From UHGV virus genome UHGV-0041136: a stretch of 45,168 nt of DNA. One strand, 5' to 3'. The position numbers and the translations under genes were made by a program. The notes under the pieces were generated by a model. It was not told the DNA's origin. It did not search any database and saw only the letters and a list, made by a program, of their open reading frames with translations. Shown here piece by piece: positions 4,980 through 42,199 of the stretch (positions are counted from its first letter, which is position 1; the number at the start of each line of letters is the position of its first letter). The DNA comes from a virus.

Positions 4980-5117
4980 CCACCCCCATCATTACTTCAC
5001 AGTTATCACCGTCGCACGCCGAAGTGCTGCGACTTGTTTCATAGGCGTCAACCAGTTCACCTAAAGTAAATTCACAATAGCTGTTCACTCTGTCTCTCCT
5101 CTCGTTTGAGTAAATGA

Positions 5118-5146
5118 ATAGTAGCCTATTCTATCTTAGTGTGCAA
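5118..5146 (-). promoter_or_regulatory. conserved promoter element, minus strand (-35 TTGCAC, 17 bp, -10 TACTAT) with AATAG-N4-CTATT inverted repeat
   Basis: plus strand tgAATAGtagcCTATTctatcttagtGTGCAAg; the same core recurs at 6468, 30060, 39165 and 41829. Confidence 0.5.
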
Positions 5147-6433: not shown

Positions 6434-6467
6434 AACCCTCACTCCTCTGTCTCGTTCCGATAAGTGA

Positions 6468-6496
6468 ATAGTATCCTATTATGTTGGGGTGTGCAA
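6468..6496 (-). promoter_or_regulatory. conserved promoter element, minus strand (-35 TTGCAC, 17 bp, -10 TACTAT) with AATAG-N4-CTATT
   Basis: plus strand gtgAATAGtatcCTATTatgttggggtGTGCAAg; near-identical to the element at 30060..30089 in reverse orientation. Confidence 0.5.
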
Positions 6497-30059: not shown

Positions 30060-30089
30060 TTGCACACCCCAATATAATAGGGTACTATT
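30060..30089 (+). promoter_or_regulatory. conserved promoter element, plus strand (-35 TTGCAC, 17 bp, -10 TACTAT) with AATAGggtaCTATT
   Basis: cTTGCACaccccaatatAATAGggTACTATTcac, 28 nt upstream of ATG 30117. Confidence 0.5.
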
Positions 30090-30116
30090 CACCTGTAACT
30101 TACTGAGGAAATAATT

Positions 30117-30443
30117 ATGCGTAAATTAGTATTAGCTCTGGGGTTTATGTCTTTTGCTACTTTTGGGTCCCCGTGCGAACAGGTATTTAGTGAATCTGTT
30201 CTTATGGCTTCTGGTGCGCTTGAGAAAGCCGACCCTACTATTGTAAAGGCATTTAAGGACTCTACAGTTCGCGAGTGTGAGGCCGCCGTAGATGTCGGTA
30301 AATCGGGCCTACCCCCGCAAGCCGTAACATACACGGTAGTACGTTCGGTAGAGCAAAACGGAGACGCGTTTTATAGCCTACTGACAGCCACCCGTCTGCA
30401 AATGGTGATGACTGGATGGGCGATAGGCGCGGAAAGTAAATAG
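30117..30443 (+). CDS. secreted small protein (signal peptide)
   Basis: MRKLVLALGFMSFATFGSP... cleavable signal-like N-terminus; first gene of cassette A. Confidence 0.55.
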   Translation: MRKLVLALGFMSFATFGSPCEQVFSESVLMASGALEKADPTIVKAFKDSTVRECEAAVDVGKSGLPPQAVTYTVVRSVEQNGDAFYSLLTATRLQMVMTGWAIGAESK

Positions 30444-30507
30444 TCGCCTTTATTTAAAGGAATCCACTGTGGTTAAATAGGACAAATCCTAAGCACGAGG
30501 AATAAGC

Positions 30508-31638
30508 ATGGCCCGGAAGAAAATAACCGACGAACAGTTGCAGGAAGAATTGAACGCCGGTATGAAGAATATCGACATCGCCCGTAAATACGGCATCTCA
30601 GACCGCGTAATTCGCATCCGTAAAGCGAAGCTGGCTAAGAAAGGCGTAGGCCACGGGCGCGACGTCAGCCACCTTGTGCCAGATGGCTACAAGATTAAAG
30701 GAACGTCGTCCCTGGTGGACGAGTTTGGCAACACTAAGTTGCAATGGGTTAAGACTGACACCGATGCTGAACGTCAGGTCGAGTTGATGAAAGCCGTAAT
30801 TGAAGGCATGAAGTCAGAGATTACCCCCGTTGCGCCTGTTAAAGCGACTCGAGCCAAACGTGACGATAAACTGCTCAATCTTTACACTGTATCTGATTTC
30901 CATCTCGGTATGCTGGCATGGGCCGACGAGAGCGGCGACGACTGGGACATGAAGATTGCGGAAGACCTGTTCTCTCGATGGTTCGACGCTGCGTTTCAGA
31001 AGGCACCAGACGCCGGGACAGGGGTTATTAACCTGCTGGGCGACCTTGCGCACTTCGATAGTCTGGACGCGGTTACCCCCGCAAGTGGTCACGTTCTTGA
31101 CGCCGATACCCGCTACCAGAAACTTGTCCGCTACATGATTCGCATGGTCCGTCGTGTTGTTGATATGGCCCTTGTTAAGCATAAAAATGTTCGCTTGCTT
31201 ATTGTGCAAGGTAACCACGACGAGAGTGGCATGATTTGGTTGGCTGAGATGTTCAGTACGCTATACGACAACGAGCCGCGTGTGTTTGTCGATACGTCGC
31301 CGGATGTTTACAAAATGGTGCAACACGGCAAAACGACGCTGTTCTTTACACACGGGCATAAATGCCGGTTTGAGGTGGTCGAACCCATTATGATAGCTAA
31401 GTTCAGAAAAGCATTTGGCGAAAGCGAGTACAGTTACGCACATGTCGGGCATCTCCACCACCAAAAGATTGTAGAAAGTAGGAATATGGTGGTGGAGCAG
31501 CATCGCACTCTCGCGGCGAAAGATGCATATGCTTCTCGCGGCGGGTGGATGTCTAAGAGGTCCGCTAATGTCATAACCTATAGTTCAGAGTTCGGGGAAG
31601 TAGGTAGGCTTTCAATCTCACCGGAGATGCTAAGATGA
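30508..31638 (+). CDS. HTH-domain protein fused to calcineurin-like metallophosphoesterase
   Basis: N-terminal NIDIARKYGISDRVIRIRKAKL (HTH-like); MPP motifs VSDFHLG (DxH), GDLAHFD (GDxxD), GNHDE, FTHGH, GHLHH in canonical order. Confidence 0.7.
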   Translation: MARKKITDEQLQEELNAGMKNIDIARKYGISDRVIRIRKAKLAKKGVGHGRDVSHLVPDGYKIKGTSSLVDEFGNTKLQWVKTDTDAERQVELMKAVIEGMKSEITPVAPVKATRAKRDDKLLNLYTVSDFHLGMLAWADESGDDWDMKIAEDLFSRWFDAAFQKAPDAGTGVINLLGDLAHFDSLDAVTPASGHVLDADTRYQKLVRYMIRMVRRVVDMALVKHKNVRLLIVQGNHDESGMIWLAEMFSTLYDNEPRVFVDTSPDVYKMVQHGKTTLFFTHGHKCRFEVVEPIMIAKFRKAFGESEYSYAHVGHLHHQKIVESRNMVVEQHRTLAAKDAYASRGGWMSKRSANVITYSSEFGEVGRLSISPEMLR

Positions 31639-31865
31639 CTTCAAAATACAACCGAACAATGACAAATATTCACGGCAGCACTATGACGGTAGACGTTTAT
31701 GATGTGCTGCGTGCCTTCGATATCCGCGACCCGGCGTTACAGCACGCATTGAAGAAACTATTGTGTATGGGCCTTCGCGGACACAAAGACACAGGAACCG
31801 ACTTAGCAGAAGCAATTGAAAGTTTGGAGAAGTTACGGGAGTATAGAAGCAATATTGATGAGTAA
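31635..31865 (+). CDS. hypothetical small protein translationally coupled to the phosphoesterase
   Basis: ATGA overlap at 31635..31638. Confidence 0.45.
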   Translation: MTSKYNRTMTNIHGSTMTVDVYDVLRAFDIRDPALQHALKKLLCMGLRGHKDTGTDLAEAIESLEKLREYRSNIDE

Positions 31866-31869
31866 GAAA

Positions 31870-31889
31870 AAGGCCCCGAAAGGGGCCTT
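31870..31889 (+). other. stem-loop AAGGCCCC-gaaa-GGGGCCTT (GNRA loop) without T tract
   Basis: between 31865 and HNH gene. Confidence 0.35.
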
Positions 31890-31908
31890 ATCGCGATAGG
31901 AGATAATT

Positions 31909-32397
31909 ATGGATTGGAATGAATTTTTCATATACGACTTAATTTCAGGAAGGATATTTAACAGAGTAACACGGTCCGGGAGGGCTAAGGCTGGAGAGGA
32001 GGCGGGTACTATACAGCGAGACGGATATAGAAGGATATTTTTCAGAGGCAAATGGCACGCGGCGCACCGTATAGCATGGGACTTAAACAATCCTAACGAT
32101 AAGCTAACGTCGTCAGATCAAATAGACCATCTAGACCATAACCGAATAAACAATAGACCGCTTAACTTAGCTAAAAAGTCCAATGCGGAAAACCATAAAA
32201 ATATGTCAAAACAGCGTAATAATAAATCAGGAGTAACTGGGGTTTACTGGAATGCAAAAGAAAGGTTGTGGTATGCACAGATATTCAACAATAACGTAAA
32301 AACGCATATAGGGTGCTTTAAGACGCTACTAGATGCAGTTGCCGCGAGGAGAGTTGCTGAAAGAGATTTGGGGTTCCACAATAACCACGGCAAATAG
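31909..32397 (+). CDS. HNH homing endonuclease with AP2-type DNA-binding domain
   Basis: HNH core GKWHAAHRIAW...IDHLDHNRINNRPLNL...NH; C-terminal GVTGVYWNAKERLWYAQIFNNNVKTHIGCFKTLLDA resembles AP2; AT-rich codon usage. Confidence 0.7.
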   Translation: MDWNEFFIYDLISGRIFNRVTRSGRAKAGEEAGTIQRDGYRRIFFRGKWHAAHRIAWDLNNPNDKLTSSDQIDHLDHNRINNRPLNLAKKSNAENHKNMSKQRNNKSGVTGVYWNAKERLWYAQIFNNNVKTHIGCFKTLLDAVAARRVAERDLGFHNNHGK

Positions 32398-38846: not shown

Positions 38847-39096
38847 GTTTCTCCTTTCTCGATAAGTAAAGCCCCGCCATAAAGCGGGGCGCTAGTCCTT
38901 ATCATTTAAACATAGAAACGGCGTAATCTCAGTAAACCAGTTACTTTTTACACAAGCAATAGAGTATGGCCCTTCCGAACGCGTCAGCGTAACTACACTC
39001 AGGACTTACGTCCCGCTCCGTTACCTGCCCGCGCCGCGGTCGCTTGCGATATCTCACAAGCTCAGGTGGAGCTTATCATATTTTTAGTGAAAAGTC

Positions 39097-39112
39097 AACT
39101 ATTCGAATAGTT
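39097..39112. repeat. perfect 16-bp palindrome AACTATTCGAATAGTT
   Basis: read directly; contains the CTATT/AATAG half-sites in everted arrangement, about 55 bp upstream of the promoter at 39165. Confidence 0.45.
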
Positions 39113-39163: not shown

Positions 39164-39215
39164 TTTGCAGACACCAATATAATAGGGTACTATTCAGTTA
39201 ACTTAAACAGGAGGT
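39164..39215 (+). repeat. 52-bp direct repeat, copy 1 (promoter + leader + SD of cassette B)
   Basis: identical by eye to 41828..41879. Confidence 0.6.
39165..39194 (+). promoter_or_regulatory. conserved promoter element (-35 TTGCAG, 17 bp, -10 TACTAT) with AATAGggtaCTATT
   Basis: TTGCAGacaccaatatAATAGggTACTATTcag then AGGAGG and ATG 39221. Confidence 0.5.
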
Positions 39216-39220
39216 AGTAT

Positions 39221-40033
39221 ATGCAACATGTGATCAGTTTTTCAGGCGGCAGGACATCAGCGTACACAACCCTTGAAGTGCTTAAACTTCACCCCGATGC
39301 TGAGGTCATCTATATGGACACCGGGGCGGAGCACCCCAAGACCTACGAGTTCATCCGCAATTTTGCTAAGCACTTTAATATTGCAGTGACGTGCCTCAGG
39401 GTTGTTCCTAACCCGGAGATGCGTAAGGCCAGCACCTATGAAGTCCTTAGCGTAGATGAAATAGGTCCTGACCTGGAGCCATGGCGCAGAATGCTGCGCA
39501 AGTACGGCCACCCATACGTCGGTGGCGCGTTCTGCACAGACCGGATGAAGACGGTGCCGTTCACCAAATACTGTGACGAGAAATACGGTAAAGGCAAATA
39601 CGACAGATGGCTTGGCATCCGCTGTGATGAACCTAAGCGCCTGGTAAACAGGAAAGAGGGGTTCCACTATCTTGCAGACATCAGCGACTTCGAAAAACAG
39701 GACATTATTGACTGGTGGGCAAACCAGGAATTTGACCTTGGTATAGAGGAGCACTTGGGTAACTGTGTTTTTTGTATTAAAAAGAGCCTACAAAAAGTAG
39801 CACTGGCCGCTAAGGATGAACCACAGTTGGCTGAACAATTTTGGGAAATGATTCAGGAAGAAGACATAAAGCGGGATAAGGTTATGTACCGGTCCAACAG
39901 AAGCCTCGGCGAGGTTATCGCGCTGTTCCGGGATGAGGGTAGGGGTGAGCTTGCGTCTCGTATGCGGTCAATGCGGCAGTACGACACAGGGTCATGTAGC
40001 GAAAGTTGTGAGGCGTTTGGGGGTGGCGAATGA
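39221..40033 (+). CDS. PAPS-reductase-like PP-loop ATP pyrophosphatase family protein
   Basis: PP-loop ISFSGGRTS at N-terminus, YMDTGAEHPKTYEF, GAFCTDRMKTVPF; Cys-rich C-terminus GNCVFC...GSCSESC. Confidence 0.65.
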   Translation: MQHVISFSGGRTSAYTTLEVLKLHPDAEVIYMDTGAEHPKTYEFIRNFAKHFNIAVTCLRVVPNPEMRKASTYEVLSVDEIGPDLEPWRRMLRKYGHPYVGGAFCTDRMKTVPFTKYCDEKYGKGKYDRWLGIRCDEPKRLVNRKEGFHYLADISDFEKQDIIDWWANQEFDLGIEEHLGNCVFCIKKSLQKVALAAKDEPQLAEQFWEMIQEEDIKRDKVMYRSNRSLGEVIALFRDEGRGELASRMRSMRQYDTGSCSESCEAFGGGE

Positions 40034-40251
40034 TTACCGAAAAGCACGACAATGGCTCCATTTCTATTGATACCAATGATGGAAGGCATTTCTTTGCCCA
40101 CTTCATTAATGGCTCGTACAACTTGATAGAGGTTGTATCTGGCGGTTGTGTGGGAATAGGCAGAATTAAAGACGAGGAAAACATTAATCGCATAATACTG
40201 AGATGGGTCGAGCTTAACAAAGAGGTTCCACTCGCAGAGCCACTTAAATAA
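40030..40251 (+). CDS. hypothetical small protein coupled to the PAPS-reductase-like gene
   Basis: ATGA overlap. Confidence 0.45.
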   Translation: MITEKHDNGSISIDTNDGRHFFAHFINGSYNLIEVVSGGCVGIGRIKDEENINRIILRWVELNKEVPLAEPLK

Positions 40252-40255
40252 AACT

Positions 40256-40280
40256 AAGGCCCCACTATGGGGCCTTTTAT
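40256..40280. terminator. bidirectional terminator AAGGCCCC-actat-GGGGCCTT + TTTT
   Basis: A-run on one side, T-run on the other; between convergent gene ends. Confidence 0.55.
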
Positions 40281-41827: not shown

Positions 41828-41879
41828 TTTGCAGACACCAATATAATAGGGTACTATTCAGTTAACTTAAACAGGAGGT
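41828..41879 (+). repeat. 52-bp direct repeat, copy 2 (promoter + leader + SD of cassette C)
   Basis: identical by eye to 39164..39215. Confidence 0.6.
41829..41858 (+). promoter_or_regulatory. conserved promoter element (-35 TTGCAG, 17 bp, -10 TACTAT) with AATAGggtaCTATT
   Basis: same sequence as 39165..39194; ATG 41885. Confidence 0.5.
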
Positions 41880-41884
41880 GAAAA

Positions 41885-42169
41885 ATGTCTCACAAATTTA
41901 AAGGTACGGACGGTGAATGGGTTAATCTCGGAACAGCTATCTGGGCGGGTGACGTTTATGTGGCGGAGGTAATGAGTATGCGGGAGAAGTCCTCAGTAAA
42001 ATTGGCTAACGCAAAACTTATCTCCTCGGCGCCTGAATTACTTGAAGCCCTTCGCCAGCTTCGCGATTACGTCGAGGATGTTTGCGCTGTATCTTCCGAT
42101 GATTGTCATGAGGATCACCCATTAAATCAGGCCAGCAGAGCAATCAAGAAAGCATTAGGAAAGCAATAA
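41885..42169 (+). CDS. hypothetical protein (cassette C cargo)
   Basis: single gene flanked by conserved promoter and bidirectional terminator. Confidence 0.5.
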   Translation: MSHKFKGTDGEWVNLGTAIWAGDVYVAEVMSMREKSSVKLANAKLISSAPELLEALRQLRDYVEDVCAVSSDDCHEDHPLNQASRAIKKALGKQ

Positions 42170-42173
42170 AACT

Positions 42174-42199
42174 AAGGCCCCTTTTGGGGCCTTTTCTTT
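42174..42199. terminator. bidirectional terminator AAGGCCCC-tttt-GGGGCCTT + T-run
   Basis: between stop 42169 (plus) and portal stop 42198 (minus). Confidence 0.55.

Follow-up and report, generated by a model that had tools for sequence, protein, structure and literature searches.

A lambda NinC-family gene and its coupled small partner as mobile cargo in a Kagunavirus-like phage genome, with a possible role in counter-defence against phosphorothioate-based restriction

Introduction

The NinC (Orf-290) family has been known since the sequence of bacteriophage lambda became available, and ninC, which is dispensable in lambda on K-12, is still called poorly understood. The protein has remained unexplained for decades, and its relatives are among the commonest "auxiliary metabolic genes" of viromes, where they are usually read as genes of sulfate assimilation; the papers that interpret phage copies in this way did so from their fold similarity to CysH. 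In the present study, a member of this family was analysed in the UHGV virus genome UHGV-0041136 (the whole stretch of 45,168 nt is called the window below). It is a 270-amino-acid (aa) open reading frame (ORF) with the fold of phosphoadenosine phosphosulfate (PAPS) reductases, followed by a translationally coupled 73-aa ORF, and the pair is carried as cargo by what its sequence indicates is a virulent siphophage.

The defence-related proteins closest to this family belong to the phosphorothioate (PT) systems of DNA modification, in which SspD, DndC and BrxP are the sulfur-transfer subunits with the PAPS-reductase fold, SspD and DndC being ATP pyrophosphatases. The PT mark is as a rule installed with the help of two further subunits, an ATPase (DndD/SspC) and one that recognises DNA (DndE/SspB). 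In phages of Vibrio crassostreae, transfer of two genes, p0018 and p0019, into a sensitive phage resulted in growth on a Dnd-bearing host (Piel et al. 2022). Additionally, DgiS1 prophages of Acinetobacter baumannii with a match to an "sspD" hidden Markov model (E ~1e-14) are associated with Ssp-bearing genomes, and phage PAPS reductases are listed as candidate anti-defence genes of variable regions in a 2026 study of Aca-regulated operons. An anti-PT role for the family has already been put forward in the literature.

Results

The first gene occupies 39221..40033 on the + strand, begins with ATG and encodes a 270-aa protein with the N-terminus MQHVISFSGGRTSAY, which, judged by homology, is almost certainly a member of the lambda NinC family. 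BLASTP aligned it with lambda NinC (NP_040635, Orf-290) over aa 1-268 at 49% identity (E 2e-94), so that the homology is full-length, and all of the family motifs are present. The match to PHROG 33262 (E 5.7e-104) covered aa 1-265, and both this group and phrog_424 (E 7.6e-63) bear the label "phosphoadenosine phosphosulfate reductase". The Pfam model PAPS_reduct (PF01507), a search against which had been suggested in the initial annotation of this DNA, gave 37.3 bits at a cut-off of 22.5 (E 3.5e-9); the aligned part was only aa 3-64, and in homologues the match reaches profile position ~120. Homologues were found by tblastn in 548 phage records, the best relatives being those of the Salmonella phage S4lw (Jerseyvirus; 91% identity), two other siphophages (83-84%) and the Klebsiella phage SBP (76%), followed by P22-like phages, in which the gene is annotated as NinC (66%), and by hundreds of Vibrio phages (~50-59%). 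In a large protein database, 2582 homologues reached E<=1e-5, and enterobacterial prophages are the source of many. Both ORFs recognised in the initial annotation are present, with an ATGA overlap and the Shine-Dalgarno AGGAGG; the annotation had missed this well-known family, to which the enzyme belongs and which makes it no novel stand-alone enzyme.

Conservation within the family was read from alignments of 13 and 44 homologues. The N-terminal PP-loop SFSGGRTS (aa 6-13; 39236..39259, + strand) is located where it had been predicted, though not in the canonical form: it is a family-invariant variant in which Thr replaces the Asp of SGGxDS. Its residues S6, S8, G9, G10, R11, T12 and S13 are invariant among the 44 homologues, and it aligns to the P-loop of CysH and of adenosine phosphosulfate (APS) reductase. 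The invariant motifs of the N-terminal part are S6-x-S8-G-G-R-T-S13, M32-D-T-G-x-E-H-P-x-T-Y, F104-C105-T-D-R-x-K110-x-x-P and Y117-C118, and those beyond them are G132-x-R134-x-D-E-P (GIRxDEPxR), L179-G-N-C182-x-F-C185-I-K-K and G257-S-C259-S-E-S-C263-E. The Cys-rich C-terminus described in the initial annotation is borne out, with eight Cys in the protein (58, 105, 118, 135, 182, 185, 259 and 263) and the tail GSCSESCE; six of the eight (105, 118, 182, 185, 259 and 263) are invariant across the 44 homologues. The initial observation as a whole goes well beyond chance.

The candidate cluster ligands are the invariant Cys105 of FCTDRMKxxP (39533..39535, + strand), a motif aligned with DINKVEP of CysH, and the likewise invariant C182-x-x-C185 of GNCVFC (39764..39775, + strand). 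The C-terminal tail GSCSESCE (aa 257-264, with Cys259 and Cys263; 39989..40012, + strand) is invariant in phage NinC proteins, and the segment of aa 254-270 is disordered in the predicted model (predicted local distance difference test, pLDDT, <50). A 33%-identical homologue from an Acinetobacter plasmid keeps the PP-loop, C105 and the CxxC and is devoid of C118 and the tail, so C105, C182 and C185 constitute the deepest conserved Cys triad. This pattern and the fold proximity to [4Fe-4S] PP-loop sulfur transferases suggest that the three-Cys site, joined by C118 in the phage clade, may bind a [4Fe-4S] cluster. The combination of a nucleotide-binding core, a metal or cluster site of three to four Cys and a mobile Cys arm would be the anatomy of a sulfur-handling enzyme, and NinC might hydrolyse ATP to AMP and PPi, as an ATP pyrophosphatase does. 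Some NinC homologues, among them P0021 and P0088 (Erwinia phage Midgardsormr38), carry a ~60-residue insertion in the loop after DEPxR, following aa ~141 of the window protein.

HHalign against Escherichia coli CysH gave a probability of 90.7% with the P-loop and the DTG aligned, and it paired FCTDRMKTVP with NDINKVEP, WLGIRCDEP with the Arg-loop FAGLRREQS and the DISDFEKQDI strand with PIIDWDNRTI. GNCVFCIKK was set opposite VGDTHTTRK of CysH by eye, the HHalign and MAFFT alignments being gapped there; we take the Fe-S CxxC of APS reductases to lie at the position of this NinC GNCVFC / CysH VGDTHTT region. In the MAFFT alignment, C263 of the tail falls opposite the catalytic Cys of CysH ECGLH. 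The structure prediction suggested initially was also informative: the AlphaFold2 (AF2) model has the assimilatory APS/PAPS reductases as its closest solved structures and also matches other PP-loop enzymes, namely the tRNA thiolases TtuA, NcsA and ThiI, as well as TilS and QueC, and the ~100 C-terminal residues are family-specific. To the extent that the Pfam score and the predicted model define it, NinC has the adenine-nucleotide alpha-hydrolase / PAPS-reductase fold and, in it, a nucleotide site of the PP-loop type.

The likeness to CysH and DndC that had been noted for this ORF holds at the level of the fold and fails at the level of the families. The CysH models NF002537 (cut-off 154), TIGR00434 (cut-off 165) and TIGR02057 (cut-off 254) gave only 24.7, 19 and 17.8 bits, respectively, and the tail reads SCSESCE, not ECGLH. 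The protein is not an Fe-S APS reductase according to TIGR02055 and the CC...CxxC ligand pattern; the curated CysH/APS-reductase models scored 18-25 bits at cut-offs of 154-254, and the likeness to these enzymes at the sequence level ends at ~aa 70. No match to the DndC family was obtained with NCBIfam at E<=1 or with PADLOC at E<=10, and dndD or dndE, the usual company of dndC, was found neither among the window neighbours nor among the annotation names listed for related genomes. The sequence match to QueC of the 7-deazaguanine pathway was not significant either.

Among the PADLOC defence models, only SspD (E 4e-12) and BrxP (E 6e-5) matched. The SspD match, for which PADLOC gives no cut-off, joins aa 2-146 to profile positions 1-129 of 277; since only this N-terminal half matches the model, NinC resembles SspD in its nucleotide-binding half and has a C-terminal half of its own. 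Genes for sspA, sspB and sspC were absent from the slot and its flanks, and, as the initial annotation had stated, no partner enzymes are evident nearby, the neighbours being structural and spanin-like genes.

Homologues of the gene reside in several kinds of genetic surroundings. Lambda ninC lies in the nin region between the genes of NinB/Orf and NinG/Rap, and in the Klebsiella phage SBP and in the contig L014 the gene is located between helicase and primase. In the Vibrio phage 44E38.1, the NinC module of p0018 (54.8% identity over aa 1-267) is fused to a C-terminal Dam methyltransferase (PF05869), and apart from this Vibrio Dam fusion no fused domains were found in longer NinC homologues. 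NinC-like genes also occur on P1-like phage-plasmids and in 137 Acinetobacter plasmid records, mostly of conjugative plasmids. On the one conjugative plasmid examined (H84; A. baumannii plasmid NZ_CP131887, L011, 5983-8773), a 33%-identical NinC-like gene without the Cys tail has an orphan N6 DNA methylase, H-NS and a thermonuclease as its neighbours, and this region looks like an anti-restriction or leading-region island.

The 73-aa partner gene (40030..40251, + strand) is translationally coupled to the NinC gene by a 4-nt ATGA stop/start overlap, in which its ATG is placed on the TGA of the 270-aa ORF. That it is a real gene, as the coupling noted initially had implied, follows from its five close homologue clusters in the large protein database, which at every locus examined stand directly behind a NinC-like gene with the same 4-nt overlap, and from pairwise ratios of nonsynonymous to synonymous substitution (dN/dS) of 0.09-0.14. 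These loci include the Guernseyvirinae-like contig L007 and a distinct siphophage backbone with Terminase_3 and Portal_3 (L004-L006). Searches of the ORF against Pfam, PHROG, NCBIfam and PADLOC gave no match, and neither did tblastn against phage records. An exhaustive profile search returned its own cluster (P0122) and two 68-aa remote relatives, one of which (38% identical) adjoins a NinC gene (76% identical NinC) in a third backbone; the contig of the other, with its 619 bp, is too short for a judgement. Twelve longer proteins (358-1829 aa) from the same search were rejected as spurious, mostly having several short matched stretches each.

Because homologues of the 73-aa ORF recur directly after NinC in different backbones, NinC and its partner can be regarded as a linked pair, and sequence comparison indicates a much higher rate of evolution for the partner than for NinC. 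S4lw, L017, AB4P2 and SBP have NinC alone, which makes the partner facultative. The possibility that the small protein is a sulfur carrier was dropped, its single Cys (C40) not being kept in the remote homologue. A second recurrent neighbour of NinC was also observed: in L016 (4314-4655) a different follower of 113 aa (phrog_4848) comes directly after NinC, and in L007 (5240-5700) a phrog_4848 protein forms a further cassette with its own promoter box after NinC and the small partner. Two antisense ORFs in the region (39257-39754 and 39915-40220) were unsupported, the + strand genes having homologues under purifying selection.

The window is, on sequence comparison, essentially a Kagunavirus-like genome, that is, the genome of a virulent siphophage related to Guernseyvirinae, and the carriage in a virulent phage presumed initially is consistent with this. 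The assignment follows from the flanks of the region, which share ~93% identity with many genomes of Kagunavirus and Jerseyvirus (Guernseyvirinae) and enclose a middle part not common to them, from the first 25 kb, which are 88-89% identical to Kagunavirus genomes over about two thirds of their length, and from the structural neighbours. The latter, all of them on the opposite strand, encode spanin-like, Hoc-like decoration, Mu-F head-morphogenesis, portal and major capsid proteins, so the NinC-family gene and its partner appear in the sequence as opposite-strand cargo within the structural module. No Rfam or tRNA match was found anywhere in the window.

The cargo slot (slot 1) begins with a promoter/5'-untranslated-region block at 39164..39215 (+ strand), the 52 nt of which (TTTGCAGACACCAATATAATAGGGTACTATTCAGTTAACTTAAACAGGAGGT) recur with the same letters at 41828-41879 in a second slot. 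The block contains TTGCAG (39165-39170), a perfect internal TATAAT (39178-39183), TACTAT (39188-39193; 17 nt after TTGCAG) and the Shine-Dalgarno AGGAGG (39210-39215) ahead of the 270-aa ORF, all on the + strand. The core promoter box is present in seven copies in the window, against 0.02 expected, and TTGCA...TATAATAGGnTACTATTCA is common to five of them, three ahead of + strand cargo and two on the - strand (5.1 and 6.5 kb); the box upstream of NinC is kept in L007 and S4lw. A stringent sigma-70 scan called no + strand promoter upstream of the 270-aa ORF, and the TTGCAG-17-TACTAT / TATAAT box was recognised only through comparison of the cassettes, from which the 39164-39215 block would be expected to act as a promoter. 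At the right border of the slot, a bidirectional intrinsic-terminator hairpin, AAGGCCCCACTATGGGGCCTT, extends over 40256..40276 (both strands), and a terminator of the form TAAAACTAAGGCCCC-loop-GGGGCCTTTT also ends the second slot (42167-42196) and the cassettes of S4lw and L007.

The description of the gene in the initial annotation as cassette cargo behind a repeated phage promoter agrees with these box copies and identical blocks, and the slot is indeed swappable. In S100, fEg-Eco19 and Bas70 the cargo coding sequence of slot 1 begins at exactly the same position as in the window and encodes, respectively, a Dam-type adenine methyltransferase, a "DNA polymerase III beta" clamp-like protein and a 67-aa ORF. 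NinC itself is found in slot 1 of the metagenomic contig L017 (93% identical protein), and in slot 2 of S4lw and of the metagenomic contig L016 (96% identical protein); the comparison thus indicates that NinC moves between the two slots and that in Guernseyvirinae it is sporadic, mobile cargo and not a core replication gene. The slot architecture, with identical 52-nt promoter arms, matching terminators and two sites, shows how Guernseyvirinae shuffle cargo.

Several further features of the slots and of their surroundings can be mentioned. The second slot (41828-42196), between the head-morphogenesis and portal genes, carries a 94-aa + strand ORF (41885-42169; phrog_1273, function unassigned). 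A third promoter box (30073-30089, in the region 30060-32397) is followed by + strand genes inside the - strand structural region, namely a 108-aa ORF (phrog_14165), a 376-aa calcineurin-like metallophosphoesterase-type ORF (30508-31638) and an HNH endonuclease ORF (31909-32397). On the - strand, TTGCAC...TA(G/T)AATAGGnTACTATTCA boxes at 5117-5133 and 6467-6483 face left ahead of small ORFs, and the similarity of the boxes suggests one promoter class common to these leftward small ORFs (5.1 and 6.5 kb) and the cargo slots. A perfect 16-bp palindrome, AACTATTCGAATAGTT, at 39097-39112, ~50 bp upstream of the slot-1 promoter block, is kept in L007 and may be an operator; just ahead of it is a + strand terminator-like hairpin (39058-39074). 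In the related Kagunavirus fEg-Eco19 (Escherichia virus; L009, 598-1104) an HNH homing endonuclease gene is inserted by the spanin-like gene, beside the same cargo slot. In the S4lw record OQ660438 (L001, 1855-5312) the product names are apparently displaced by one gene: "portal protein" stands on the homologue of NinC, "PAPS_reduct domain-containing protein" on the Mu-F-like gene for head morphogenesis and "terminase" on the portal gene.

Discussion

The identity of the protein, its motifs and fold, the architecture of its cassette and its linkage with the partner are directly supported by the results above, and from them and from what is known of relatives a function can be proposed. By analogy with these relatives, the most likely role of NinC would be counter-defence against PT-based restriction of the Dnd, Ssp or BREX type 4 kind, a reading to which we give somewhat less than even confidence. 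It is favoured because SspD and BrxP are the only defence models matched, because a homologue is linked to anti-Dnd genetics, because of the Dam fusion and the slot-sharing with Dam methylases, and because of the plasmid context. The initial suggestion that the gene could modify DNA or interfere with a host system agrees with the same family evidence, that is, with the anti-Dnd genetics and the SspD-like N-terminal half, and it likewise remains an analogy. Self-marking is the specific mechanism that we propose for such counter-defence, with low confidence. In this case NinC would perform ATP-dependent sulfur-transfer chemistry of the SspD/DndC kind, with the sulfur passing from a host cysteine desulfurase to the Cys arm and on to the [4Fe-4S] cluster, and the replicating phage DNA would be made to carry or mimic the host "self" mark. 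Targeting to DNA would be provided by a partner. In the Vibrio phages this would be the Dam domain fused to NinC, and in the present phage the 73-aa protein, Dnd/Ssp partners from the host, or both. What NinC acts on and its part in anti-defence are what we infer from this combined picture.

A number of facts weigh against this proposal. The window encodes neither an ATPase (DndD/SspC) nor a DNA-recognising subunit (DndE/SspB), no match to the curated DndC model was obtained, and the SspD model covers the N-terminal half only. The Asp of the PP-loop is replaced by an invariant Thr, and the ATP pyrophosphatase activity is therefore not assured. The anti-defence role of a stand-alone NinC is drawn from its relatives by analogy, and since Piel et al. 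(2022) put two genes in the place of four, the anti-Dnd effect cannot be assigned to the PAPS domain by itself. In addition to the dispensability of ninC in lambda on K-12, three Dnd systems still lower the plating of lambda 3- to 60-fold (efficiency of plating, EOP, 0.016-0.3); the lambda reference genome carries ninC, the genotype of the lambda stock used in the Dnd plating not being stated.

The restriction of lambda by Dnd would fit if NinC acted on nucleic acid or nucleotides in a manner unrelated to PT immunity, by thiolation- or adenylation-type chemistry on DNA ends, recombination or replication intermediates, tRNA or the nucleotide pool. The position of lambda ninC between NinB/Orf and NinG/Rap, that of the SBP and L014 genes between helicase and primase, and the fold neighbours TtuA, NcsA and ThiI (tRNA thiolases), TilS and QueC speak for such an activity. 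At the same time, the Dam fusion and the occurrence of Dam methylases in the same slot suggest evasion of restriction, anti-Dnd is the one phenotype that genetics has connected with the NinC family, and in Guernseyvirinae the gene is sporadic mobile cargo, all of which makes this explanation unlikely. NinC might instead be a decoy, an SspD/DndC look-alike that binds and sequesters IscS/DndA/SspA, DndD-E, SspB-C or the restriction module and so disables sensing or cleavage, with the 73-aa protein as a second small inhibitor. The strict invariance of the nucleotide-site and Cys motifs argues for catalysis over mere binding, no weight can be put on the weak fold matches of the small protein and many NinC copies have no partner, and we consider this model quite improbable.

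The database label implies that NinC is an APS/PAPS reductase and thus a genuine auxiliary metabolic gene, one that would form sulfite and raise the cysteine supply during infection. This reading appears the least probable, and very much so. Some papers do interpret phage copies in this way, and it gains from the assimilatory APS/PAPS reductases being the closest solved structures, from the Cys...CxxC pattern, which by eye resembles that of Fe-S APS reductases, and from the position of tail Cys263 opposite the catalytic Cys of CysH in the MAFFT alignment. Against it stand the scores of the curated models (18-25 bits vs 154-254), the end of sequence similarity at ~aa 70 with ~100 family-specific C-terminal residues beyond, the cysH, cysI and cysJ genes that the E. 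coli host already has, and three settings that are hard to square with sulfate assimilation: fusion to Dam, anti-restriction surroundings on plasmids and location in replication modules. The evidence obtained here argues against sulfate assimilation and for DNA-directed counter-defence, given the failure of the CysH/APS models, the SspD-like half, the Dam fusion with the slot-sharing, the plasmid context and the anti-Dnd phenotype.

Counter-defence could also take a form that is independent of the host Dnd/Ssp modification proteins. NinC and its partner would then be a self-sufficient mobile two-gene module whose thio-modification or de-modification, of a kind not described before, would act on phage DNA, a signalling molecule or a nucleotide substrate. 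We consider this a long shot; if true, lambda NinC would at last have an assigned biochemistry, as would thousands of phage "PAPS reductases" that are labelled as metabolic. The compact promoter-to-terminator slot of a virulent coliphage, which allows easy deletion or swapping of the cargo, makes this locus a convenient test case, and lambda would serve equally.

Compared with known systems, the gene is closest to lambda and P22-like ninC, of which its product is a full-length orthologue that shares the PP-loop variant, MDTG, FCTDRxK, GNCxFC and the GSCSESCE tail. Unlike lambda ninC, which lies in the nin region of a temperate lambdoid phage and is followed by the gene of NinD, it lies as cargo among the structural genes of a virulent phage, on the strand opposite to theirs, and is followed by an unrelated 73-aa partner. 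The NinC module of p0018 of phage 44E38.1 has all of the invariant motifs of the family, and p0018, too, is located in a variable region, one of anti-defence genes; unlike p0018, the window protein has no Dam domain, and the neighbour p0019 (DUF6475) has no homologue in the window. With SspD, DndC and BrxP it shares the superfamily, the N-terminal nucleotide-binding half and the Cys-rich composition, DndC being an Fe-S enzyme, whereas its C-terminal half has no SspD profile match and no desulfurase, ATPase or DNA-recognition genes stand alongside it, in contrast to SspD and DndC. APS reductase (PDB 2goy) and CysH (1sur, 6vpu) are 18-20% identical to NinC, which scores far below the cut-offs of their models and differs in an extra ~70-residue helical region ahead of the tail and in a tail of the CxxxC type instead of ECGLH. 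TtuA, NcsA and LarE, the [4Fe-4S] PP-loop sulfur transferases, show no detectable sequence homology to it beyond the fold, and the order and spacing of its Cys follow the PAPS_reduct family and not these enzymes. To what was already known, the NinC family itself and the anti-PT role proposed for it, the present comparison adds the negative tests of membership in the CysH, APS-reductase, DndC and QueC families, the deep Cys triad as opposed to the tail of the phage clade, the recurrent fast-evolving partner and the slot architecture with duplicated arms.

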